64,000 bases of DNA from an uncultured Chthonomonadaceae bacterium (GCA_963817895.1 CAWFQB010000001.1:576001-640000); one strand, 5' to 3'; positions 4,346 to 36,474 are shown, numbered from the stretch's first letter. A program made the numbers and translations. The notes: generated by a model from the letters alone, not told the origin.

Positions 4346-6196
4346 ATGCCCACGCAATCCGTCGAAGAAAAACTCGCCACGCTTCCGACCAAACCCGGCT
4401 GTTACCTGCACAAAGACAAGACCGGAACCATCATCTATGTCGGCAAAGCCATCAACCTGCGTAACCGCGTCCGCTCGTACTTCCAGAAGTCGGCCAACCA
4501 CTCGCCCAAAGTGCGCCGACTGGTTTCGCACATCGCCGATCTGGAGTACATCGTCTGTGAAACGGAACTGGAAGCGCTTGTCCTCGAATGTAACCTCATC
4601 AAGAAGTACCAGCCGCATTACAATGTCCGGCTGCGCGACGACAAGCAGTATCCCTACCTGTGTCTTACCATGTCGGAGCCGTTTCCGCGCCTGATTGTCG
4701 TGCGGCGCGTTCGGCAGGACAGCAACAAGTATTTCGGGCCGTACACCAATAGCCGCAGCGTGTACGCTACCATGGAACTCGTCAACCGGACTTTTCCCCT
4801 GATCTCGTGCGGCAAAAGTTTCGACGGGCGACCGGTGCAAAAGCCGTGCCTGTATCACCACATGGGGCAATGCCTCGCGCCGTGCGCCGGACTTGCGGAC
4901 AAGGAAGAGTACCGCGCCGCCTGCAAGGACGTTTCCGACTTTCTGGACGGGCGCGAAGAGCGTATCATCAAGGATATGCGCCAACAGATGGAGGAAGCCT
5001 CGGAAAATCTGGAATTCGAGCGGGCCGCCCGTTTGCGGGATCGCTTGCAGGCCGTCGAGGATACCCTGAAACGCCAGCGCGTGATGACGACGGAAACCAT
5101 AGATCAGGACGTTATCGCGGTCGTGGAGGACAATACGGGGCTGAACGGCGCGTGCGTGCAGATGTTCTTTATCCGGGGCGGCAAACTCATCGGGCAGAAC
5201 CATTTTCTGGTCGAGGGTACGGAAGAGGGCAGTCAGGACGACGTTGTTCAGGAGTTCGTGAAGCAGTATTACCAGAACGCCAATTATATTCCGCAGGAGA
5301 TTCTGCTGCCGCATGAGATCGAGGAGAGCCAGATTATTCAGTCGTGGCTGCGGCAGAAAAAGGGCAAAAAGGTCGAGGTGCATGTGCCGGTAAGGGGCGA
5401 CAAGAAGAAACTCATAGACATGGCGACGGAAAACGCCAGTCACGCGCTTGTGCAGATCAAGGCGGAAATGCGGGCTAAAATGGGCAACGCGGAAGTGGCT
5501 CTGAAGGAATTGGGGGAAGCCCTCGGACTGCCGGAACCGCCCATGCGAATCGAGTGTTACGACATTTCCAACACGCAGGGAGCCAATCAGGTCGCGTCCA
5601 TGGTGGTGTGCGAAAAGGGGCAGATGAACAAGACCGAATATCGGCGGTTCAAAATCCAGCGCGAGGACGACAAGCCCAACGACTTTGCCAGCATGGAGGA
5701 GGTACTGCGCCGCCGCCTGAAAGAATCGCAGAAACTCAACAATCCCAAATTCAACAAATTGCCCGACCTGATTATCGTGGACGGCGGGCGCGGGCAGGTG
5801 TCGTCCGCGCTTACAGCCATGACGGAAACGGGCGTCTCGCTTCCCCTGTGCGGGCTTGCCAAGCAGTTCGAGCATCTGTTTCTGCCCAACGAACCCGACC
5901 CGGTCATTCTGCCGCGCAACTCGCAGGCGATGTTTCTCATCCAGCGCATCCGCGACGAGGCGCACCGTTTCGCCAACACCTTCAACGCGCAATTGCGGGG
6001 CAAAGCGCAAACCCATTCCTTGCTCGACGAGGTTCCCGGCATCGGCCCCAAACGCCGCAAGCAGCTTCAACTGCATTTCGGCAGCGTTGCCAAAATGAAG
6101 CAGGCCACCCAATCCGAACTCGCCGAAGCCCCCGGCATGAACGCCTCTTTAGCAGAAGTTCTCTTCGACTACCTGCACGATGCTACGAAAACCTGA
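4346..6196 (+). CDS. uvrC: Excinuclease ABC subunit C
   Basis: GIY-YIG (PGCY..YVGKA), Cys cluster, UVR domain (LEFERAARLRD), RNaseH-like ECYDIS/DGGRGQ, RDEAHRFA and HhH. An extended -10 lies 8 nt before the ATG, so it is probably leaderless. Confidence 0.98.
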   Translation: MPTQSVEEKLATLPTKPGCYLHKDKTGTIIYVGKAINLRNRVRSYFQKSANHSPKVRRLVSHIADLEYIVCETELEALVLECNLIKKYQPHYNVRLRDDKQYPYLCLTMSEPFPRLIVVRRVRQDSNKYFGPYTNSRSVYATMELVNRTFPLISCGKSFDGRPVQKPCLYHHMGQCLAPCAGLADKEEYRAACKDVSDFLDGREERIIKDMRQQMEEASENLEFERAARLRDRLQAVEDTLKRQRVMTTETIDQDVIAVVEDNTGLNGACVQMFFIRGGKLIGQNHFLVEGTEEGSQDDVVQEFVKQYYQNANYIPQEILLPHEIEESQIIQSWLRQKKGKKVEVHVPVRGDKKKLIDMATENASHALVQIKAEMRAKMGNAEVALKELGEALGLPEPPMRIECYDISNTQGANQVASMVVCEKGQMNKTEYRRFKIQREDDKPNDFASMEEVLRRRLKESQKLNNPKFNKLPDLIIVDGGRGQVSSALTAMTETGVSLPLCGLAKQFEHLFLPNEPDPVILPRNSQAMFLIQRIRDEAHRFANTFNAQLRGKAQTHSLLDEVPGIGPKRRKQLQLHFGSVAKMKQATQSELAEAPGMNASLAEVLFDYLHDATKT

Positions 6197-18290: not shown

Positions 18291-20334
18291 CTACTTCATC
18301 TCATACGCGACGGACACCATTTGCGGGTCGGCGTCCGCGTTGATTTTGTAGGTGAAGGGCAGTCTGGTAACGGTTGTTTTGAACGTTTTGGCCTGCCCGT
18401 TTTCTTTCCAGTTGTGGACGACGGTGAACGGTTTGAACCCGCCGGAATTGACGGGCGCGAGTGGGTCTTTGTAATCGGCGTCTACCCGGAACGTGAATAC
18501 GCCGACCGTGTTGTTGCCGGTCATTTCATAGCGCAGCAGAGCCTTGCGGGTGTTGGCGGGAACGTTGGCGAAGCGGAAATATTTCGTGGTGGCGGGCGTC
18601 GGCCCGTTGATTTGCCCCGCGTCCGTCCATGTTTGCCCGCCGTCGAAACTGAGTTTCAGTTTCACCACATCTTTGTCGCCTCTAGCCCGGATGTGCGCCC
18701 CGAAGCGCAGCGTGGTCATGTCGCCGGGAGTTTCGATGGGTACGGTCATGCTGCCAATTCCGCCCTGCCACCAGCAACCGCCGCCCTCCGTCATGCGCAG
18801 GTTGTCGAACTGTACGCCCATTGTGCCGGACGTTTCGTTTTTGGTGAAGTTCGTATCGGGCGTGATGCGGCAGTTGATGGTTCGCGTGGCGATGTTGGTG
18901 TCGGTATCCGCTGCTATGGTGATGGTGTTTGCGCCCTTGCCGAGCCGGGGCAGGGTGCGGGGCGCGTGCTGAATGTCGTTTTCAATCGCCAGCGTATTCA
19001 GACCAGCGCTGTTCGGGGCCATTCCGACAATCTCTATTTTCAGTTGGTAAGCGTAACGGCGCGTAATGCGGTCGCCCAGATCAATCGTGGTTTCGGTTGC
19101 GCCGGTTTTGTCGCTGCTCCACAGGGGCGCGAACGTCCGCCCGTTGTTGGTGGACAGGGAAACGGTCACTTTGTCCTGCGCGGTTCGAGTCTGCGCGTTG
19201 ATTTTGACGCGCCCGCCGAGATACACATACGGCGAGTTCATTTCAAGGATGGCGACGCCGGGTTTGCCACTTATTTTGGCGCACAATGCGGGGATGTTGG
19301 GCGCAGCGGAAAGGCCGGACGCGAGATTGTCATAAATCAACGCGCCCTGCGCCAGTTCGCCCTGCGCGAGATTGGGCGCGTAGCGGTGGTAGCCGTTGCC
19401 AACCACGCCGCCCTCATATCCCGGCACATAGTCCGGCACATAGGCCAGATCGCCCTGCGGAACCTGCGCTTTCAGCATCACGAAATTGGGGGCTACATCT
19501 TTGTTGACGTGTAGGCCGTGATTGCCCGCTTCCCGAACCAGCGACTCGCCGGGACGCAGGGAGAACAGGGCGCGGTGTCCAAGCTGATAGCCGTACTCGT
19601 ACACTTCGCTGTTGCGGTTGTATTCCAGCATGGTCGCGTCCCAGCCGTGCGTTCGGGCGGGGTAGTAGCCCATGCGAATGGTGGCGTTGTTGGCAAGCAG
19701 GGCGGGACCTTTGTCCTTCCAGCCCATCCAGCCGTCGCTTTTCATCAACTGGAAAATTTTGTCATTGTTGCCTTCAAAGCCGGGATGCGTTTTGTACCAG
19801 TCTTTGACGGCTTTGGAAATATCGTCCACGCCCGCGAGTTCGCCGGTTTCCGGTTTCGGGAAACAGGGTGATGAGCGAACAGTCGTACATGTGCCACGCG
19901 CCGTTATATTTCACTTCCGCCACGCTATGCCCGTTGAGGATGCGCCCCTGCGCTTCGCGTCCGTCCAGCCGGTTGAGCGATTCGATGAGCGACGAGCAGC
20001 AGCAGCACATGCAGTAGCCGTACACATCGAAGATTTTTACGGGGTCGTGCGCTTCCCATTCACCGGAAATGTATTCGTTGGGTGGTAGGGTCTGATGCCG
20101 GTATTTCACGGATGCCGTCCACAGCGCTTTGGCCCGCTGTTCGTCCGTCATGCCGGGTTTGACAAACGATTTCAGGATATTTTCGGGCGTGGTGGTATCG
20201 TCAATCTTGTCGGAAAGGACTTTGAGGTTGTTGATTCGCCCGCCCCGATTTGCTGCCGTCTGCGCCTGTCCCGGCATCGGCGCAAGAAGCGCGAAGGCGG
20301 CGGCTGCAATCAGAGAATGGTTGATGCTGCGCAT
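18291..20334 (-). CDS. Secreted transglutaminase-like protein, frameshift at ~19860
   Basis: Signal peptide; YGYCMCCCCS, then GHSVAEV..W..YD (Cys-His-Asp core); beta-rich C-terminus. Confidence 0.7.
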
Positions 20335-25637: not shown

Positions 25638-26367
25638 ATGTGCAATGCAAGCATCCCGTTGACAAACGTCGTAGAGAATGAGGTACTGCAATTGATGCAG
25701 GCGAAGAACAGTTTCACCGCGCTGGACGTTTCCAACGCGCTGAAAACCGCGAAGTATCCTGTCCGGCATCGCGAGGTGGCAGAAGTGGTGCGCGACATTT
25801 ACAATTCCGGCGCAATGGCGTATTATGACTATGGCCGGCAGTTGATGGACGTGACAACGGACGGCGGAACCAAAACCGCGCAGGCGTATTTGTACCATCA
25901 TCAGACGGCGCGAATTTCCGATTATGCCGGTTTGAGTCAAAGACGCCCTGCCGCCCGTTCCCGCGAATCAGGCGCGTGACCTGTCCGACTGCGTAGCCGC
26001 CGATCCGCTCGGCCTGCTGAAACGTTCGCCCACAGTAGCCGCCGCCCGCAACCGCAGCAGTCATTCCACTGCGCCGCGCTTCACAACCGGGCGACAGGAT
26101 GGCGCGTTGGCGATTTCAAGCCGCATCATCGCGCAGCTTGGCTGGACGGACGGCGAATTGCTGACCGTTCGCGCCGAACAGGGTAAACTGATTGTGGAGG
26201 CGTCCGCGCCCATCGCCCCCGTCAGTCAAAAAACGCCGGTTGCCCGCGTGTGGAGCGGCAGGCGAGTTCGCATTTGTAAAACCAAACTGCGCCTGTCCGC
26301 GCTTGCCGCCGATGGCGTGACGGTATCGGTAGACGGCAGCAGCCTGTGCATTGCCGCCCGTCCGTAA
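25638..26367 (+). CDS. Hypothetical protein with C-terminal AbrB-like domain, +1 frameshift at ~25940
   Basis: AAGGAG RBS; the frames join across an aaa run; DGALAISSRIIAQLGWTDGELLTVRAEQGKLIV is AbrB-like. Confidence 0.6.
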
Positions 26368-26395
26368 GGGTTGCGCATCGTTCATTTCAAATACT

Positions 26396-26438
26396 CCCCT
26401 TCTACCAACTTTGGGAGAAGGGGTTGGGGGTTGAGGGC
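26396..26438. repeat. REP-like palindrome, second copy
   Basis: CCCCTTCTACCAA-CT-TTGGGAGAAGGGG followed by ttgggggttgagggc. Confidence 0.7.
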
Positions 26439-26468
26439 TACTCCGCCCATAACAAAGGAAACATCCTC

Positions 26469-27002
26469 ATGCAAATGAAACCGTTTGCGCAGAATTTTTG
26501 GGTGAAGCCGGGACTGCTTTGCGCGGGACAGTATCCGGGCGCGGTTTCTGAGGAGGAGCGGGAAGCGAAGATACGCGGGCTGGTGGCATGTGGCATCCGG
26601 CGCGTCGTGAACCTGATGGAAGAAACGGAAACCGGCTGGAACAAAAAGACATTCATTCCCTACGCGGCGCAACTGACGGAAGCGGCAGACGCTCAGGGCA
26701 TACAGGTGGAGTGCCTGCGCTTTCCCATCCGCGACGCCTGGGTTCCCAACCATGCCGACATGAAGCGCATACTGGATACCATTGACGAGTCCGTTCAGGC
26801 CAACACTCCCACCTACGTACACTGCTGGGGCGGGCATGGGCGCACAAGCACGGTCATCGGCTGCTGGCTGGTTCGGCACGGGATGACCGGAAAGGAAGCC
26901 ATCGCGCAAATTGAAGACTGGCGCAAAGACCTGCCCAAACACCATTACCCGCTGGAAGACGAGCAAGAACACTTTATTTTGTGCTGGACAGCAGGAGAAT
27001 AA
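26469..27002 (+). CDS. Dual-specificity/PTP-like phosphatase
   Basis: CX5R motif HCWGGHGRT and FPIRD loop. Confidence 0.92.
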   Translation: MQMKPFAQNFWVKPGLLCAGQYPGAVSEEEREAKIRGLVACGIRRVVNLMEETETGWNKKTFIPYAAQLTEAADAQGIQVECLRFPIRDAWVPNHADMKRILDTIDESVQANTPTYVHCWGGHGRTSTVIGCWLVRHGMTGKEAIAQIEDWRKDLPKHHYPLEDEQEHFILCWTAGE

Positions 27003-27041
27003 TCCTACGTTGCCTAATATCGGAACAGCCGCTTCGCAAGA

Positions 27042-27114
27042 GGAATGATAGCTCAATCAGAAGAGCGCGTTGACGACATCAACGATGTTACGGGTGCAAT
27101 TCCCGTTCATTCCA
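27042..27114 (+). tRNA. Non-canonical tRNA-like element, anticodon position reads GAC (Val)
   Basis: Stems GGAATGA/TCATTCC, GCTC/GAGC, CGTTG/CAACG and ACGGG/CCCGT are all perfect. Loops are atypical (AATCAGAA, ACGACAT, TGCAATT). No encoded CCA. Confidence 0.8.
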
Positions 27115-27138
27115 CTCCCGACCCCGAAGCGGCCATAC

Positions 27139-27211
27139 GGGGATCGTAGCTTAAACGGAAGAGCGCGGCAAACAGTTCCGAGGCTGAAGGTTCGATCCCT
27201 TCCGGTCCCCA
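27139..27211 (+). ncRNA. tRNA-like element with a shrunken anticodon arm
   Basis: Acceptor GGGGATCG/CGGTCCCC, D arm GCTT/GAGC, canonical T arm GAAGG-TTCGATC-CCTTC; the anticodon arm is only CGG-CAAACAGTT-CCG. Confidence 0.8.
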
Positions 27212-27216
27212 CAAAT

Positions 27217-27277
27217 GTAGGGGGTAGGGAGTGGGGAGTAGAAAACACCCTATTCCCTACTCCCCACTCCCTATCCA
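27217..27277. repeat. Inverted GGGAGT heptamer clusters
   Basis: gtagggggtagggagtggggagtag followed by ccctattccctactccccactccctat. Confidence 0.8.
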
Positions 27278-27287
27278 CCTGAAATTT

Positions 27288-28715
27288 ATGGACATACCCC
27301 CGCAGGAACTGGAAATTTGCCTGAATGTGTTACAGCGCGTGGCGGACGATCCGGCCATGATCGATGACCATGCGCGGATGAAGGCGCTGATCGCCAAAAT
27401 CCACAAGACGGGCAAAAAAGGCGAACGACTGGCAGGGCGCGGCACGGAACGCGAGGCAGACCGGCAGGCGAAAGCAGAAACGGAACTGGTGCGGGCGCAA
27501 AGCGGGCAAGGCCAGTTCAGGCGATTGCCTGCGCCCCTGCCGTCTGTCGAACCTGCCGAACCGAACGCCACTTCTCCGAACACGCTTCACAAAGCGACGC
27601 GCTGCTATATCTGCAAACAGATGTACGCGCAACTTCACTTCTTTTATCATCTGCTGTGTCCCGATTGCGCCGCGCTCAACTACGCGAAACGGATGCAGCG
27701 GGCCGACCTGACCGGGCGAATCGCGCTGGTCACGGGCGGGCGTATCAAAATCGGCTATCAAACCGTTTTGCGCCTGCTGCGGGATGGCGCGACCGTTCAT
27801 GTCACCACGCGTTTTGCCCACGACGCGCGGGAACGTTTCCAAAAGGAACCGGATTGGGACGAGTGGCAATCTCGCCTGCACGTTTACGCGCTGGATTTGC
27901 GGCATCTTCCGAGCGTGGAAGCGTTCGCTCAACATTTGTTGAATACCCTTCCGCATTTAGATATTGTGATTCACAACGCCGCGCAAACGGTGAAGCGTCC
28001 CCTCGCCTTTTATCAGCATTTACTGCGGGAGGAACAACTCGACGAACCGCGCGAAGCGATTTCTTCACTATCGGCACAGGGGCAAAATATAATTCTTGCT
28101 CCGCAACAATCTTCCGTGCTGCTGGAGAATCAGGCGGGGTATGCTGGGCATTTGGGCGGCGATATGAGCGCGTACTTTCCGCCCGATGCGTGGGACGCGG
28201 ACGGGCAGAAATTAGATACGCGCCCCGTCAACAGTTGGGCCTTGCGCCTGCACGAAGTGAGCGCGATAGAGATGCTGGAGGTGCAGTTGGTCAACTCCGT
28301 CGCGCCGTTTCTGCTCAACAGCCAGCTCAAACCGTTGCTGCTGCGTTCGCCGTTTGCCCGCCGCTTCATCGTCAACGTGTCGGCGATGGAGGGGCAGTTC
28401 GCCCGCGAAAGCAAAACCGTGTTTCACCCGCACACGAATATGGCAAAAGCCGCGCTGAATATGATGACGCGCACATCGGCAGGGGATTACGCGCAGGACG
28501 GCATTTACATGAACAGCGTGGATACGGGTTGGATCACGGATGAGAACCCCCACGCCAAAAAAACGTACCTTCAGGAAGCCAAAGGCTTTTACACGCCGCT
28601 GGATATTCTGGACGGCATGGCCCGCATCTACGATCCCATCGCGCAGGGCGTCAACTCGCCCGATACGCCCCTGTACGGCCATTTTCTGAAAGACTACGCG
28701 CCCCATTCGTGGTAG
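27288..28715 (+). CDS. SDR oxidoreductase with N-terminal Zn-binding (CxxC..CxxC) domain
   Basis: CYICK..CPDC, TGGRIKIG, HNAAQ and atypical catalytic segment HTNMAKAA. Confidence 0.9.
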   Translation: MDIPPQELEICLNVLQRVADDPAMIDDHARMKALIAKIHKTGKKGERLAGRGTEREADRQAKAETELVRAQSGQGQFRRLPAPLPSVEPAEPNATSPNTLHKATRCYICKQMYAQLHFFYHLLCPDCAALNYAKRMQRADLTGRIALVTGGRIKIGYQTVLRLLRDGATVHVTTRFAHDARERFQKEPDWDEWQSRLHVYALDLRHLPSVEAFAQHLLNTLPHLDIVIHNAAQTVKRPLAFYQHLLREEQLDEPREAISSLSAQGQNIILAPQQSSVLLENQAGYAGHLGGDMSAYFPPDAWDADGQKLDTRPVNSWALRLHEVSAIEMLEVQLVNSVAPFLLNSQLKPLLLRSPFARRFIVNVSAMEGQFARESKTVFHPHTNMAKAALNMMTRTSAGDYAQDGIYMNSVDTGWITDENPHAKKTYLQEAKGFYTPLDILDGMARIYDPIAQGVNSPDTPLYGHFLKDYAPHSW

Positions 28716-28827: not shown

Positions 28828-30060
28828 ATGACCTTATCACTGGAAGAACTGCAAAATGAGCCGGTGCGCGTCCATTGTCCGATACGGGGCGTGATTGAGA
28901 TTGCGCCGCCGGACGTGGCGGAGATTGCGCCGCTTGTCGCGCATCTACAGGCCAATCAGCCCGTTGCCGAACCGACCTCGTTCCCGCGCGGCACGGTGCT
29001 GGAAGACGGGCGGCTGGATTTGTGCAAGCAGCATTTAGGCGCGTTGGGCTGCCGCATGGTTACGGACGCGCTTACTGTCAACACGACCATTACCAGCCTG
29101 CTGCTCGGCACGGACGGAATCGGCGACGGGGGCGCAGCCGATGTTGCCCGCCTCATAGAGCGAAATACACATCTGGAAATCGTGTATTTGGGCTGCAATT
29201 TCATCAGCGAAACCGGCGCGGCAAAGTTGTCCGCATCGCTGGCGCGTAACACGTCTGTTACCGGGCTGTGGCTGAAGCGCAATCCTTTAGGAGCGAACGG
29301 CGTTCAACATGTTGCGGAGATGCTGTGGCATAACAATACTCTGCGCGTTCTGGATTTGGTCAACACGGAACTGGATGAGGAGGGATTGTCGGCAATCGTA
29401 CTGGCGCTTGTACACAAAAATTATACGCTACAGCGTTTGTATCTGGGTGGTAACGGCATTGGACCTTCGAGCGCAAAAGAACTGAGGTTCCTGTTGTGTA
29501 CGCCAACCTCCTTGAAGGCGCTGTTTCTCAACGTCAACCAATTGGAAGATGCGGGCGTCGCTATACTGGCCGAAGGACTGCAACAAAACGCCACGCTGGA
29601 AGAACTCGGCCTGGGCAGCAACAACATCGGGCCGGAAGGCATGGCAGCGCTGTTGCCTGCGCTTCGCGTCCATCCTGTTTTGAGGGATTTGGATTTGGGT
29701 TACAGCGCGTCCACACAAGTTCTCGGGGCGCAGGGAAACCACATCGGGGATGCGGGCGTGATTCAGATTGCCGAATGGCTGCGCGACAATCCGCCCTTGC
29801 GCCGCCTGAACCTGCGCGGCAACGGCATCGGGCTGGCAGGACGCGCCGCCCTTCATGCCGCGCTGGAAACCAACACCAACCTGCTGCATCTCGCGCTGGA
29901 CACCAAACACGACGCCCACACCGACAGTCTGAACGCCCTGCTGGAACGCAACCGGGCGCAAAACTCTGAAGCGGACACGCTGCTTGCCCGCGACATAACG
30001 CTGATTCGCAGCGTTTACCGCACTGTTCCGGCAGCCATTTCCGTTCCTGCCGGGGATTGA
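28828..30060 (+). CDS. RNI-like leucine-rich repeat protein (GALA-like)
   Basis: About ten 28-aa LxxLxLxxNxIxxxG repeats. Confidence 0.92.
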   Translation: MTLSLEELQNEPVRVHCPIRGVIEIAPPDVAEIAPLVAHLQANQPVAEPTSFPRGTVLEDGRLDLCKQHLGALGCRMVTDALTVNTTITSLLLGTDGIGDGGAADVARLIERNTHLEIVYLGCNFISETGAAKLSASLARNTSVTGLWLKRNPLGANGVQHVAEMLWHNNTLRVLDLVNTELDEEGLSAIVLALVHKNYTLQRLYLGGNGIGPSSAKELRFLLCTPTSLKALFLNVNQLEDAGVAILAEGLQQNATLEELGLGSNNIGPEGMAALLPALRVHPVLRDLDLGYSASTQVLGAQGNHIGDAGVIQIAEWLRDNPPLRRLNLRGNGIGLAGRAALHAALETNTNLLHLALDTKHDAHTDSLNALLERNRAQNSEADTLLARDITLIRSVYRTVPAAISVPAGD

Positions 30061-32199: not shown

Positions 32200-32450
32200 A
32201 TCATTCTCTCTTCCGTGTTCGCCTGCCGCGCTATTTCCAATATACTATCACCAGTTCGATTACAAGACAGGGACACGCTTGCTTATACGCTCATGGAAGC
32301 CTGCGCATTTTGGTTACGATGCCTCCACAACACCTTTTTCTACGCCAGATGCTTTACGAGAGTTACAACGCGCAGGAAGCACACGCCCCGCCGTCGAAAT
32401 CTGCCTTACCCTCTTTCACACTATTTTTACTTTTTTGCGGAGTACCAGCC

Positions 32451-33545
32451 ATGTTCCGTTTCGATGCCCACAAACCCGCGCATCTGCGCGACAGCATGAC
32501 GCGCCGGGATTTCCTCCATGCCGGGGCGTTGTCGCTGCTGGGCATGGGCCTGACCCTGCCGGAATTCATGGCGATGCAGGCGCGAGGCAGCGTCCGCAAA
32601 GACAAAGACATCAACTGCATCCTGCTATTTTTGCGCGGAGCGCCCTCACAACTGGATACGTGGGACATGAAGCCCGATGCCCCCATAGAAATACGCGGCC
32701 CGTTCAAACCCATAAAAACCAACGTGCCGGGTATGGAGATTTCCGAACTGTTTCCGCGCATGGCAAAACGCGCCGACATGTTTTCCATTGTCCGCTCGGT
32801 CTGCCATACCACTGCTGTCACGCATGACACAGGGCATCAGATAATGCGAATGGGACATCTGTTTTCGGGCCAATTGGAGTTTCCGAATAGTGGAAGCGTG
32901 ACGCAGCACGCGCAGAATTCGCCGCATGATGTTCTCATATCCACGTCCAAAGCCCGCGAAGCCTCTGATATGAGCAAAGAGCCGGAGCGAATACGCGACA
33001 AATACGGGCGTAACAGGTTCGGGCAATCGTGCCTGCTGGCGCGGCGACTGGTGGAGCGCGGCGTCCGGTTCGTCACTATCAACATGTTCGAGAACGTCTT
33101 CGATGAGATTACGTGGGACATTCACGGCAGCGCGCCGTTCCCGACGATGGACGCTTATGAAACTGTGTGCGGCCCCTGGTTCGACAACGGCTACACCAGT
33201 TTGATTGAGGAACTGAAAGAGCGCGGCCTGTACGACAATACCATTGTGATTGCCACGGGAGAGTTCGGGCGAACACCTAAAATCAACCGGGCGGGCGGGC
33301 GCGACCACTGGCCGCACTGCTGGAGTCTGATTTTGGGCGGGGGCGGCATCAAAGGCGGGCATATCGTGGGCGCGTCCGACAACATCGGCGCCTACCCCAC
33401 AGATCGCCCGACAACTCCCGCCGACATCGCCGCCACTCTGTACACCGCGCTTGGCATTGACCTCACACACGAACCGTCTATCCCCATTGGTCATCCCATT
33501 CCTGTCGTAACAGACGCCACTCACCCTTTACATGAATTGTTGTAG
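32451..33545 (+). CDS. DUF1501 family Tat-type protein, apparently shortened internally
   Basis: TRRDFL, GAPSQLDTWDMKP, CLLARRLVERGVRFV, GEFGRTPKIN and GRDHWP. Confidence 0.88.
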   Translation: MFRFDAHKPAHLRDSMTRRDFLHAGALSLLGMGLTLPEFMAMQARGSVRKDKDINCILLFLRGAPSQLDTWDMKPDAPIEIRGPFKPIKTNVPGMEISELFPRMAKRADMFSIVRSVCHTTAVTHDTGHQIMRMGHLFSGQLEFPNSGSVTQHAQNSPHDVLISTSKAREASDMSKEPERIRDKYGRNRFGQSCLLARRLVERGVRFVTINMFENVFDEITWDIHGSAPFPTMDAYETVCGPWFDNGYTSLIEELKERGLYDNTIVIATGEFGRTPKINRAGGRDHWPHCWSLILGGGGIKGGHIVGASDNIGAYPTDRPTTPADIAATLYTALGIDLTHEPSIPIGHPIPVVTDATHPLHELL

Positions 33546-33565
33546 ATTAAGGAGCAAAACCGACT

Positions 33566-34943
33566 TTGGAATCCATTTATCCCGTCAAAGACTTCAATCG
33601 CGTGATGTATGCGTGTCAGGTAGACGAACCCGCGACTGAAAGAGAGTGGACTGCGCCATGATTTTTCCAAATTACAGGGCGGCAGCGTTCGTACCGAGTT
33701 GGCAGTAACACTGAATGCGTGGCTGCCCGAAGGCGAGTACCGCCATCGTCTGCTGTGCGGGCATCGCGGGTCAGGCAAATCTACAGAGATGTTGGCGCTC
33801 AAGAAATGGGCGGACAACCACGGCTTTTTGAGTGTGTGGATGGAAGTTGATCTTTACTTCGGATTGGCGGAGTTGCACTTTTCGGATTTGTACTTGCTGG
33901 CAACCGAGGCGGTGGAACGCGCCATGCTGGAAATCGGTTTGTCGCTACCGAAAGAGGAGTTGGAAGCGGTAACAAACTATTTCGCGGAAATTACGCGGGA
34001 GGATAAGGAAACGCGCAAGTCCGAACTCAGTTTGGAAGCCGATGCAGAATTGGGCGCGGGTATTCCCATTATTGGCAAGTTTGTTGCTAAATTTCGTTCC
34101 AACGCGCAGGGGAGTTCCGAACATCTGCAAACGGTGCGGCGTAAAATACGGCAGGACCCGGATACGCTGATTGCAGCGACAAACAGGGTATTGCAAACCG
34201 CGAACAAACTGCTTGTCGTCAATAATCGCGCCAAAGGCTTGCTGCTGCTATTCGACAATCTGGATCGTTACGAGACGCCGAATATCAAGGCGCTGTTGCT
34301 TGATGGAGCAACGCTTGTCCGCAAAATGGCCGCGCATGTGGTTTATACGATGCCGATCAATTTGCATTATGGCCCGGACAGCGCGTATCAGGACTACTAT
34401 GGTGGTCCGGCGCATGTCCTGCCGATGCTGGCATTGCGGCAGCAAAACGCGGATTGGAAAACAACCGTTACCGATAGTCCGTATAAGGAAGAGGCCGTTG
34501 ATGAAATGCTGAAAGCATTGAACCGGCGCATTGAGGTGGCAATGGTTTTTGAAAATGTGGAAGACGCGCGGCTGATGATTAGAATGAGCGGCGGCTGTAT
34601 GCGCGACCTGCTGCATCTGGTGGGTATCGCGTTTCAAAAATCGTTTACGGATATTGACTCGCCACCTACGCGCTTAACTTCTGAGGGCGTACACCATGCC
34701 ATTGCTCAGTACCGCAATGACCTGACGGCAGGACTGCTGCCGGAACACTACAAGGGGCTTGCCTTGATTGCTGACTGCAAGGCAGAGTCGCAAATTCAGG
34801 ACGAAAATCAACTTCTCAAACGGCGCGTATTGCTGCGCTACAAAGACGCTGATAATCCGTGGATTGACGTTCATCCGCTCGTGATCGAAACAAAAGGATT
34901 TCAAGATGCCCGCAGCGCCTCCTCTCCAATCGCCCTCCGATGA
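33566..34943 (+). CDS. P-loop AAA-type ATPase, frameshift at ~33635
   Basis: Walker A GHRGSGKST, Walker B LLLLFDNLD, SGGCMRDLL and C-terminal W.DVHP. Confidence 0.85.
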
Positions 34944-36474
34944 CCTGAAAACGGCATTGGACACGCAGGGGGAACGAGAGTACATACAACTGCTCTCCAT
35001 GCTACACACACGCAGGGCATTTTCGCCCTGATGCTGGTGCGCAGCAATTTCACGCCTGCCCTGCGCGACCGGCTACTGGAACGTTTGGCCGCTGACCTTG
35101 CGCCCGCGCCTTTATCTATCGTTCGCGTGACCAAGACAAAATATAATGCGGGTCAAATGCTGGCGGAAGCGGCGCAGTTTACATCCGGTACGGGCGTACT
35201 CGCGCTCGTCGGTCTGGAAGATACGCCAGATATGGTTGTAGAAGGCGGCAAAGAGATGCGCCGCCCGCCCGCGCTTGCCAGTTTAAATCACGGACGTGAG
35301 GCCCTGCGTCGCGCCTGTCGCCTGCCTATTCTCGTATGGTGCAGCGATTGGGTTTATGAAACCCTGCGGGAACATGCGCCCGACTTTTTCGATCATTTCA
35401 CCGGCTTGTTCCACTTCTCAAATGCTAATCCAAATTCAACTGCATACAATGACCATGTGATGCTAACTATCAGAGGCCATGCAGAGAGCGAAGACACACT
35501 CCTCAGCCAAGTTTCTGAAGAGCAACGCCTTGTACGCGCAGAAGTGGACTTTTACACCTCCGAAGTCAATTCTCATCCAGAACCAACACCACAACGCGCC
35601 GAATTACTGATTGGTTTGACGGAGGCCCTGCGTAAACAAACGACAGGCAACCGAGCATCTTTGCTCTCTACAGGCGCGGGAAGCTGTTATGGAGGCGTTG
35701 GCAATACTCTCACCGAAGAGTGAACCCTACGACTGGGCAAAAGGCCAGAACATACTGGGGATAATTTACAATGAACTGCCAATTGGTGACCAAGCCGAGA
35801 ACCTGATGAAAGCTATTGAGTGTTACCAAGCCGCATTGCATGTTGCACATGAAGACACACTGCCTAAGCAGTGGGCAGCAACGCAGAATAATTTGGGCAA
35901 TACTTATACACTTTTGCTCATTGGTGACCAAAGCGAGAACCTGACGAAAGCCATTGAGAGTTACCAAGCCGCATTGCGTGTGTATAGAGAGGACACTCTG
36001 CCACAAATGTGGGCAACGACGCAGAACAACTTGGGAAACGCTTATACGTATTTGCCGGTTGGCGACAAAGGCGAGAACCTGACGAAAGCCATTGCCTGTT
36101 ACCAAGCCGCGCTTCGAGTTCGCCGCGAAGATACGTTGCCGCAGGATTGGGCAACGACGCAGAACAACTTGGGAAACGCTTATACGTATTTGCCGGTTGG
36201 CGACAAAGGCGAGAACCTGACGAAAGCCATTGCCTGTTACCAAGCCGCGCTTCGAGTTCGCCGCGAAGATACGTTGCCGCAGGATTGGGCGGGAACTCTG
36301 ACAAATCTTGGGATTGTACTACAAACCCTCGGTGATAGTGTTGGGGCGCGCAATGCTTGGACAAACGCCATACGCGGGTACATGGCTGTCGGTATGGAAG
36401 ACGGCGTGCGTCAAATGCAGAACTGGATTGATTCTTTGCCGAAAGAGGATGAGGACGTGGGCGAGACGGCATGA
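34906..36474 (+). CDS. TPR protein with N-terminal alpha/beta domain, frameshifts at ~35010 and ~35670
   Basis: LNHGREAL..PILVW..APDFF domain, then 46-aa WATTQNNLGNAY repeats; overlaps the end of the ATPase. Confidence 0.85.
36010..36290 (+). repeat. Exact 138-bp tandem duplication within the TPR gene
   Basis: 36010-36147 is identical to 36148-36285. Confidence 0.9.

Follow-up and report, generated by a model that had tools for sequence, protein, structure and literature searches.

We analysed a window of 64,000 nucleotides (nt) from an uncultured Chthonomonadaceae bacterium (GCA_963817895.1 CAWFQB010000001.1:576001-640000), in which two tRNA-like elements stand in tandem just ahead of genes encoding a zinc-ribbon protein of the short-chain dehydrogenase/reductase (SDR) family and a leucine-rich repeat (LRR) protein (Table 1). 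The genome holding the window (G000; 7.48 Mb in 14 contigs, 81% complete), placed in the Armatimonadota by its nearest named relatives, was compared with two congeneric genomes, G001 and G002, and with individual loci from other bacteria, designated by L-numbers. A preliminary description of the window had proposed two tandem tRNA-like RNAs inside a protein operon, and ARAGORN, Rfam and the drawn structures all agree with it. ARAGORN calls two + strand genes, a tRNA-Val(gac) at 27042-27115 and a tRNA-Cys(aca) at 27139-27212, and the Rfam tRNA model RF00005 (gathering score 29; E values for the whole window) matches 27042-27114 at 52.4 bits (E 2e-8) and 27140-27210 at 44.1 bits (E 4e-6). Contrary to the expectation that such programs would return low or pseudogene-type scores, both elements thus exceed the curated threshold. 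They are adjacent as described, but separated by 23 nt according to the ARAGORN coordinates and not by 24. The end of element 2 lies 76 nt before the SDR start codon, and element 1 just upstream of element 2 on the same strand.

The particulars that had been given for the two structures are borne out when these are drawn. Element 1, reported to have four perfect stems, AG in the D loop, TGC in the T loop and no U33, folds with stems of 7/4/5/5 bp in which all 21 pairs are Watson-Crick. Its D loop, AATCAGAA, carries A18 G19 and ends in AGAA, its T loop is TGCAATT with G55, and its anticodon loop ACGACAT has C33 and a GAC triplet; position 73 is A, and at -1:73 an A faces this A. Element 2, reported with an 8-bp acceptor, a canonical T arm and a 3-bp/9-nt anticodon arm, has an acceptor of eight pairs that include one G.U and end in an eighth pair G-1:C73, a 4-bp D stem with a GGAA D loop, a variable loop of 4 nt and a T loop TTCGATC, with both G18 G19 and T54-U55-C56 present. 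Its anticodon arm consists of three pairs (CGG/CCG) closing 9 nt that Rfam leaves unaligned. Neither element encodes CCA, as had been noted, both being followed by AC; because most tRNA genes of this genome lack CCA, it must be added to the organism's own tRNAs.

Table 1. Features in and around the tRNA-like cassette (positions within the window).
Feature	Position	Strand	Evidence and remarks
Phosphatase open reading frame (Pfam PTP-SAK, DSP/PTP-type)	26346..27002	+	PF22784, E 9.5e-20; HCxxGxxR motif in translation
9-bp helix bracketing element 1, 5' arm	27028..27036	+	Perfect complement of 27125-27133; present in minimum-energy fold
Element 1, tRNA-like	27042..27114	+	ARAGORN, Rfam RF00005
9-bp helix bracketing element 1, 3' arm	27125..27133	+	Minimum-energy fold
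Element 2, tRNA-like	27139..27211	+	ARAGORN, Rfam RF00005
20-bp hairpin of genome-dispersed heptamer repeat, REP-like	27218..27277	.	Predicted fold; blastn-short
Zinc-ribbon SDR, 475 residues	27288..28715	+	PF00106 and PF13561
LRR_6 repeat protein, ribonuclease-inhibitor-type	28828..30060	+	PF13516, E 3.7e-20

The association of such elements with the SDR gene recurs widely. We fetched and scanned 80 loci encoding relatives of the SDR, counting a tRNA-like gene as linked when it lies on the same strand and at most 250 nt away. Linked genes are found in 38 of the 80 loci, one to nine per locus, upstream of the SDR in 21 and downstream in 17, with nearest gaps of 2-170 nt, and their hosts belong to the Armatimonadota, Cyanobacteriota, Chloroflexota, Myxococcota, Thermodesulfobacteriota and Bacteroidota. 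When presence and absence are mapped onto a tree of the SDR from a quick IQ-TREE run (78 rows: 76 loci, the window SDR and its paralogue on contig C14, the four loci with a best match below 400 residues being omitted), two changes suffice, versus about 26 after shuffling of the labels. The rows that lack tRNA-like genes fall into a well-supported paralogue clade of 36 rows, mostly from Armatimonadota, and another clade of 4 rows; the covariance model built for the family (R1) gave no match in the SDR loci that lack tRNA-like genes. Plasmids were checked after the hypothesis had been formed, covering four of six hits to SDR homologues, and in two of these four GGAA-type tRNA-like genes stand beside the SDR: a single one 57 nt upstream on a Deinococcus plasmid, and three, beginning 35 nt downstream and followed by a DUF434 gene, on Fulvitalea pFA2.

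The same coupling is seen inside the genus. G000 and G002 possess all three parts (tRNA-like gene, SDR and LRR gene), and none of the three was found in G001 (97% complete), where an SDR paralogue was the only match of these queries. Because two genomes hold all three parts and the third yielded none, the parts seem to come and go together. Attachment of genomic islands at tRNA genes was considered as a cause of the linkage and ruled out, the linked genes being non-canonical, present in one to nine copies and placed on either side of the SDR depending on the phylum. As a separate observation, two IMG/VR contigs (L090 and L091, the latter labelled as a giant-virus metagenome-assembled genome) encode an SDR homologue of 32% identity that keeps the zinc ribbon, and about 550 nt downstream of it, at 4562-4963, carry five tandem tRNA-like elements on the same strand. 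These have weak anticodon stems and are not called by ARAGORN; seven ordinary tRNA genes are clustered on the opposite strand.

The linked genes have a recognisable signature, which we examined in 112 distinct SDR-linked sequences from other genomes (114 with both elements of the window). A D loop ending in GGAA together with a T loop beginning with TTC occurs in 86 of the 114; D loops of the GGTA type predominate among the tRNAs of G000. Position -1 forms a Watson-Crick pair with position 73 in 89 of 112 sequences (G:C 55, A:T 20, T:A 11, C:G 3), as compared with 14 of the 64 other tRNAs of G000. The acceptor therefore has eight pairs, of which the eighth covaries, and with the 5-bp T stem it forms a 13-bp branch. 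A pure ARAGORN artefact was ruled out as the source of the 8-bp acceptor, the -1:73 pairing being covarying and reaching 79% versus 22% in the controls.

All four helices of the SDR-linked relatives are maintained through compensatory changes. Paired cells make up 88.4% in the MAFFT alignment and 93.5% in a model-fitted one of 130 rows, which leans towards structure and counts two ordinary opposite-strand tRNAs among its rows; none of 500 shuffles reached these values, and slid controls gave about 50%. The anticodon stem is 85.5% paired and shows covariation at all five pairs, and closely related Chryseobacterium species, with about 89% identity between their SDR genes, differ by double compensatory changes in the T and anticodon stems. 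The tertiary contact at the elbow behaves likewise: all four genes of L058 and L059 have U19 and A56, which swaps the usual G19:C56, an exchange that amounts to few independent events as the two genomes are related. This analysis establishes a distinct family of SDR-linked tRNA-like genes in which the whole predicted L-shape is under selection and the anticodon loop drifts. The comparison of stem covariation with anticodon variability that had been proposed shows compensatory stems and a preserved elbow next to anticodon loops that vary in length, identity and possession of U33. The idea of selection for shape and not for decoding is supported for the family, though not by the two window copies alone.

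The anticodon loops themselves were counted in the 105 members with loops of 7 nt, with 60 tRNAs of G000 as the control. U33 is found in 60 of the 105 versus all 60 controls, and a purine at position 37 in 85 versus, again, all 60. A further nine of the 114 members have loops of 6 or 8 nt, and ARAGORN marks an unpaired position in the anticodon stem of 45 of 114. The commonest triplet is GCT, and the genes carrying it, like those with Leu-type triplets, have short variable loops; bacterial SerRS depends on a long variable arm. Triplets also change between close relatives: the third position of the Chryseobacterium array reads AGC, AAG or AAC according to species, and the first Flavobacterium gene has a different triplet in each of three genomes. 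A GC-containing triplet is present in 55 of the 105 loops and may reflect either ancestry or a recognition motif. Judged by these sequence features, the members of the family are not ordinary decoders.

How the two elements of the window fit this family was assessed in G002, in Capsulimonadaceae and in contigs from public sequencing runs, the latter coming from relatives and not from the organism of the window. Element 2, which scores 65.5 bits with R1, is 96% identical to its counterpart in G002, and all three differences fall in the anticodon and variable loops; around it the flanking genes of the two genomes are 75-85% identical and the spacers cannot be aligned. With the anticodon loop left aside, it shares 84% identity with the second gene of a Capsulimonadaceae locus (L004:3904-3977), whose anticodon stem has all 5 bp and whose loop reads CTGCAAA. 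Because this counterpart has an intact arm, the 3-bp/9-nt arm is taken as a shortening, seen so far only in the genus of G000 and G002; G002 retains the short arm with another loop sequence, and loop positions 27175 and 27176 are variable among the relatives' contigs. By these comparisons, element 2 is a typical member of the family and the one conserved in this genus.

Element 1 scores 67.7 bits with R1, and its closest family member is 69% identical to it. The loop pattern A32 C33 ... CAU at 36-38 is shared by members from Capsulimonadaceae, Nostocaceae and Armatimonadales. It had been suggested that A18 and G55 compensate for each other at the tertiary level; this combination is known from a single sequence and gains no support from covariation, and the five further members that have A18 combine it with an ordinary TTC. 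Contigs of relatives from two sequencing runs join the position corresponding to 26998 to that of 27139 with 40 other letters in between and no element 1. Just 5' of the element-2 copy, the contig of one relative reads like the 3' half of a tRNA-like gene with G55 in its T loop. Element 1 fits the family, and we are less sure of its status than of that of element 2.

Among the proteins, the SDR is the constant partner. Invariant throughout its family are four cysteines (C106, C109, C124 and C127) and, at the site of the classical YxxxK, the motif HPHTNMxKAxLN, with a histidine seven residues before the lysine; the family also has a TGG-R-K-G nucleotide-binding motif. In the AlphaFold2 model (mean predicted local distance difference test score, pLDDT, 86.3), a Rossmann domain is accompanied by long helices at the N terminus and by a small zinc-binding unit rich in strands. 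In a homology search that scored at least 8000 clusters, the protein is named only 'SDR family oxidoreductase' by the sources, every NCBIfam match of the SDR stays far under its cut-off, and an ESM Atlas search with the N-terminal 140 residues gave unnamed clusters only. The LRR_6 protein was detected by tblastn in 15 of the 80 loci. In 14 of them it lies directly 3' of the SDR, always with tRNA-like genes; in the fifteenth, from the metagenome-assembled genome of a member of the Polyangia, a myxobacterium (L053 2714-5410), LRR_6 and SDR are fused in one open reading frame of 898 residues, and no tRNA-like gene was found at that locus. A complex prediction for the SDR and LRR proteins scored 0.00 and, being without controls, is used neither for nor against their interaction.

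The phosphatase upstream of the elements, whose real start is probably downstream of 26346, belongs to the cassette in this genus only: among the 80 loci, tblastn found it only at the two copies of the G002 locus, where its residues 32-218 are 83% identical. Other lineages have other neighbours, namely TatD, DUF434/DUF5616 and SIR2 genes in Flavobacterium, Chryseobacterium and Lacinutrix, and a gene with an NYN domain at one Nostocaceae locus. These are suggestive of RNA metabolism, and are conserved only among related genera. PADLOC reported no family for the SDR, the phosphatase, the LRR protein or five of the Bacteroidota neighbours.

Several features of the surrounding DNA are recorded here in their own right. 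A perfect inverted repeat of 9 bp places element 1 as if in the loop of a hairpin, and could be a processing stem or the footprint of an insertion. The region 27003-27295 folds with z = -6.27 relative to shuffled sequences, the cloverleaf of element 1 being contained in the minimum-energy structure. The hairpin following element 2 belongs to a class of long perfect heptamer-repeat hairpins found throughout the intergenic DNA of G000, some of them adjoining ordinary tRNA genes: it has 165 blastn-short matches genome-wide, several near such genes, and a hairpin built from a different heptamer occupies the syntenic spot in G002. Being a genome-wide repeat, without a T run and unlisted by the terminator scan, it was rejected as a terminator or attenuator specific to the cassette. 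A few kb downstream of the cassette, at 32310-36474 on the + strand, lie genes for a DUF1501 protein, an AAA_16 (STAND-like) ATPase and a TPR protein. A 97-nt 'tRNA-Gln(ttg)' called by ARAGORN at 19107-19203, inside coding sequence, is most likely a false positive, as its stems are weak and Rfam does not match it at the gathering threshold.

Elsewhere, G000 has a normal tRNA-Val(GAC), normal tRNA-Cys genes and a tRNA-SeC call. Further tRNA-type calls in it are an ARAGORN 'tRNA-Pyl(cta)' with an amber-reading anticodon (C11:90528-90599), a 93-nt ARAGORN 'tRNA-Arg(gcg)' whose T loop is odd (C1:1067214-1067306), and a tight one-strand array of 18 tRNA genes, many of whose isoacceptors are duplicated elsewhere (C4:227906-230044, within the locus L085 = C4:224000-234000). 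An unusual trio at C3:373423-373740 (L083 5924-6241, - strand; Glu ttc, Cys gca and Met cat) shares the T loop TTCGAGG and a D arm similar to that of element 2, with CGCG in place of GG; it lies directly 3' of an ABC-type permease gene, with no SDR nearby.

From these observations, we consider it probable that the elements belong to a family of tRNA-shaped RNAs that are not ordinary decoders, encoded in an accessory cassette with a zinc-ribbon SDR and often an LRR_6 protein, and having these proteins as dedicated partners. The tRNA-like RNAs would be co-transcribed with the SDR message, released from the transcript by RNase P and RNase Z and completed by the CCA-adding enzyme, and would then act in trans with the SDR and LRR proteins, whether as their substrate, as a carrier or as a structural cofactor. 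What would keep them apart from the translation pool is the eighth acceptor pair, with the 13-bp branch that it creates, together with the changed anticodon loop; tRNASec and the G-1 irregular tRNAs discussed below are precedents. Element 1 would be a second member of the cassette, its usefulness being less certain. Of the three roles that had been put forward, the best fit is to ligands for neighbouring proteins, since the genes are linked to one SDR family across phyla; decoys and processing signals are possible but less likely roles.

Other results count against this interpretation or narrow its base. Element 1 is a singleton without the eighth pair, and is missing from the syntenic locus of G002 and from the relatives' contigs. 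R1 scores ordinary tRNAs about as high as members of the family, up to 72 bits in the C4 array, and because its score does not separate the two, membership rests on the discrete features and on position. The SDR homologues on the Tsukamurella and Chondrinema plasmids, two of the four examined, have no tRNA-like gene, and many of the loci come from related genera (11 from Chryseobacterium, 3 from Flavobacterium), so that the counts exceed the number of independent events. For the SDR, the fold search of the PDB and the sequence search of PDB chains returned generic SDRs only, with no hint of an RNA substrate. The sole RNA-library record is a 162-nt contig of depth 2 from a relative, which extends from the end of the phosphatase gene 35 nt into element 2 and for which DNA carry-over is possible.

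One alternative is that the tRNA shapes serve only in cis, recruiting RNase P and RNase Z to cut the message or capping the end of the SDR mRNA. The arrangement of the genes agrees with this, as they are always on the same strand and abut the SDR (2-13 nt after its stop codon in many Bacteroidota, 19-124 nt before its start elsewhere), and at three loci (L007, L008 and L035) they flank the SDR-LRR pair at both ends. Yet RNase P and RNase Z read mainly the acceptor/T half, whereas the D arm, the elbow between G18G19 and the T loop with its 19:56 covariation, and the anticodon stem are maintained as well; arrays of up to nine different members and a conserved eighth acceptor pair also exceed the needs of punctuation, which we thus regard as an unlikely explanation. 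Rather less likely still is that the RNAs act as decoys or sensors for tRNA-cleaving toxins, with the LRR protein binding the nuclease and the SDR acting downstream. Anticodon loops that differ between close species are what an arms race would produce, and the recurrent GC-containing triplet, the ribonuclease-inhibitor-type LRR_6 partner, the NYN, TatD, DUF434/DUF5616 and SIR2 neighbours in other lineages, and the accessory, patchy and sometimes plasmid-borne cassette would all suit such a role. It would, however, leave a dehydrogenase as the conserved core unexplained; a few copies would presumably be swamped by cellular tRNA, no component of the cassette matches any PADLOC defence model, and the nuclease neighbours, being conserved only in related genera, may be plain synteny.

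The two remaining explanations take the elements as tRNA genes, either failing or functional. Decay would concern chiefly element 1, a duplicate or new arrival on its way to being lost: it is present only in G000, the phosphatase gene being joined to element 2 without it in G002 and in the relatives' contigs, its nearest member is distant, and it deviates at positions 18 and 55 and at the eighth pair. That its 21 pairs have nevertheless all remained Watson-Crick, that its loop pattern recurs in three other lineages and A18 in five other members, and that the contig of a relative suggests another tRNA-like 3' half with G55 ahead of the element-2 copy, make decay very unlikely in our view; for element 2, it is contradicted by the 96% conservation. 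Least credible of all, and close to being discounted, is that these are ordinary accessory tRNA genes that supplement the reading of Val GUC/GUU and of a Cys codon, even though both elements pass the Rfam threshold, ARAGORN assigns them anticodons, and element 1 has A73 and a GAC anticodon. Element 1 lacks U33, G18 and U55 and element 2 a 7-nt anticodon loop, a regular tRNA-Val(GAC) is already available in G000, the long arm is absent from members with Ser or Leu anticodons, U33 is missing in 45 of 105, and orthologues switch anticodons.

Among known RNAs, the closest to the SDR-linked family are irregular tRNAs encoded in polycistrons in soil acidobacterial metatranscriptomes, which include 'G-1 tRNA1' species that were charged by Escherichia coli HisRS and did not decode (Mukai et al., 2017, PMC5389517). 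In both groups the tRNA-shaped genes are clustered, their acceptor branches depart from the standard and their anticodons disagree with their identity. Some have G-1, which in the SDR-linked sequences takes the form of G-1:C73 in 55 of 112 and in element 2. They differ in that the irregular tRNAs have 8/4 or 7/5 branches and are reported near toxin-antitoxin genes, whereas the SDR-linked family has an 8/5 branch, a GGAA D loop and ties to the SDR and LRR genes (PMC5389517). A 13-bp branch made of an 8-bp acceptor and a 5-bp T stem is what marks tRNASec for its dedicated partners and not for the general pool (PMC5389517, PMC8450103). Of the window pair, only element 2 has the 8/5 branch of bacterial tRNASec; the 6-bp D stem, the long variable arm, the UCA anticodon rule and G73 are missing from the SDR-linked family. 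Of the tRNAHis-type marks G-1:C73 and a GUG anticodon, G-1:C73 is present in element 2 and GUG is not.

Bacterial Y RNAs such as YrlA, which are described as having a tRNA-like domain and Ro60 partners (bioRxiv 10.1101/312249), are likewise tRNA mimics that do not decode and whose genes adjoin that of the protein served. Their tRNA-like module is, on that description, set on a longer stem, whereas the SDR-linked RNAs are complete cloverleaves with no TROVE gene at the locus. The analogy to Ro60/RtcB repair systems that had been drawn for the two elements does not apply here: the sole TROVE match in G000 (C1:1545210-1545428) is about 940 kb away, the search for RtcB in this genome (81% complete) yielded nothing, and Rfam gave no Y RNA match within the window. 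A precedent for an SDR fold working on tRNA-shaped RNA is provided by human mitochondrial SDR5C1 (HSD17B10), which is reported to form with TRMT10C a tRNA-binding platform for RNase P and ELAC2 (PMC11996679). The zinc-ribbon SDR differs from it in its N-terminal helical arm and zinc ribbon and in having no methyltransferase partner, and no specific sequence kinship between the two was seen, the PDB hits being generic SDRs.

In glutamyl-tRNA reductase (GluTR), SelA and the non-proteinogenic tRNA-Gly of staphylococci, a tRNA carries the substrate of an enzyme and does not feed the ribosome; GluTR uses NADPH, and the staphylococcal tRNA-Gly species have altered D and T loops. The SDR-linked look-alikes might be orthogonal carriers. 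A synthetase would charge them, and the SDR, scaffolded by the LRR protein, would then spend NAD(P)H on converting the esterified amino acid or on freeing it by reduction. For about half of the members, those with G-1:C73, HisRS would be the candidate synthetase, and the 8/5 branch and the altered anticodon loop would hold the RNAs off the ribosome. The SDR fold is unrelated to that of GluTR, and we put this forward as a speculative and improbable specification. If true, it would amount to a new tRNA-dependent metabolic pathway, spread horizontally over at least seven phyla.

A dedicated protein partner for a tRNA-shaped RNA, as proposed here for the SDR-linked family, is in itself no novelty, protein-partnered tRNA mimics being already known. 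The family as such is apparently previously undescribed: a full-text search of the literature found no paper tying tRNA-like genes to the zinc-ribbon SDR or LRR proteins, an earlier mention being possible in comparative genomics of rhodanese-phosphatases or RNA repair. Non-decoding tRNA mimics with dedicated proteins (Y RNA and Ro60, tmRNA and SmpB, tRNASec and its own factors) are rare and informative, and the cassette would add a further pairing, of a distinct 8/5 tRNA-like family with an uncharacterised dehydrogenase. For annotation, this suggests a rule by which tRNA calls adjoining a zinc-ribbon SDR gene would be excluded from the decoding set. Bacteria that have been cultured and are tractable are among the carriers of the cassette, in Flavobacterium, Chryseobacterium, the myxobacteria and Deinococcus; for Nostocales strains, this is true of the SDR at least. 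For the many proteins now annotated as 'SDR family oxidoreductase', our interpretation would thus turn a bare name into a testable hypothesis, that of an RNA-linked chemistry or an RNA-based regulation.

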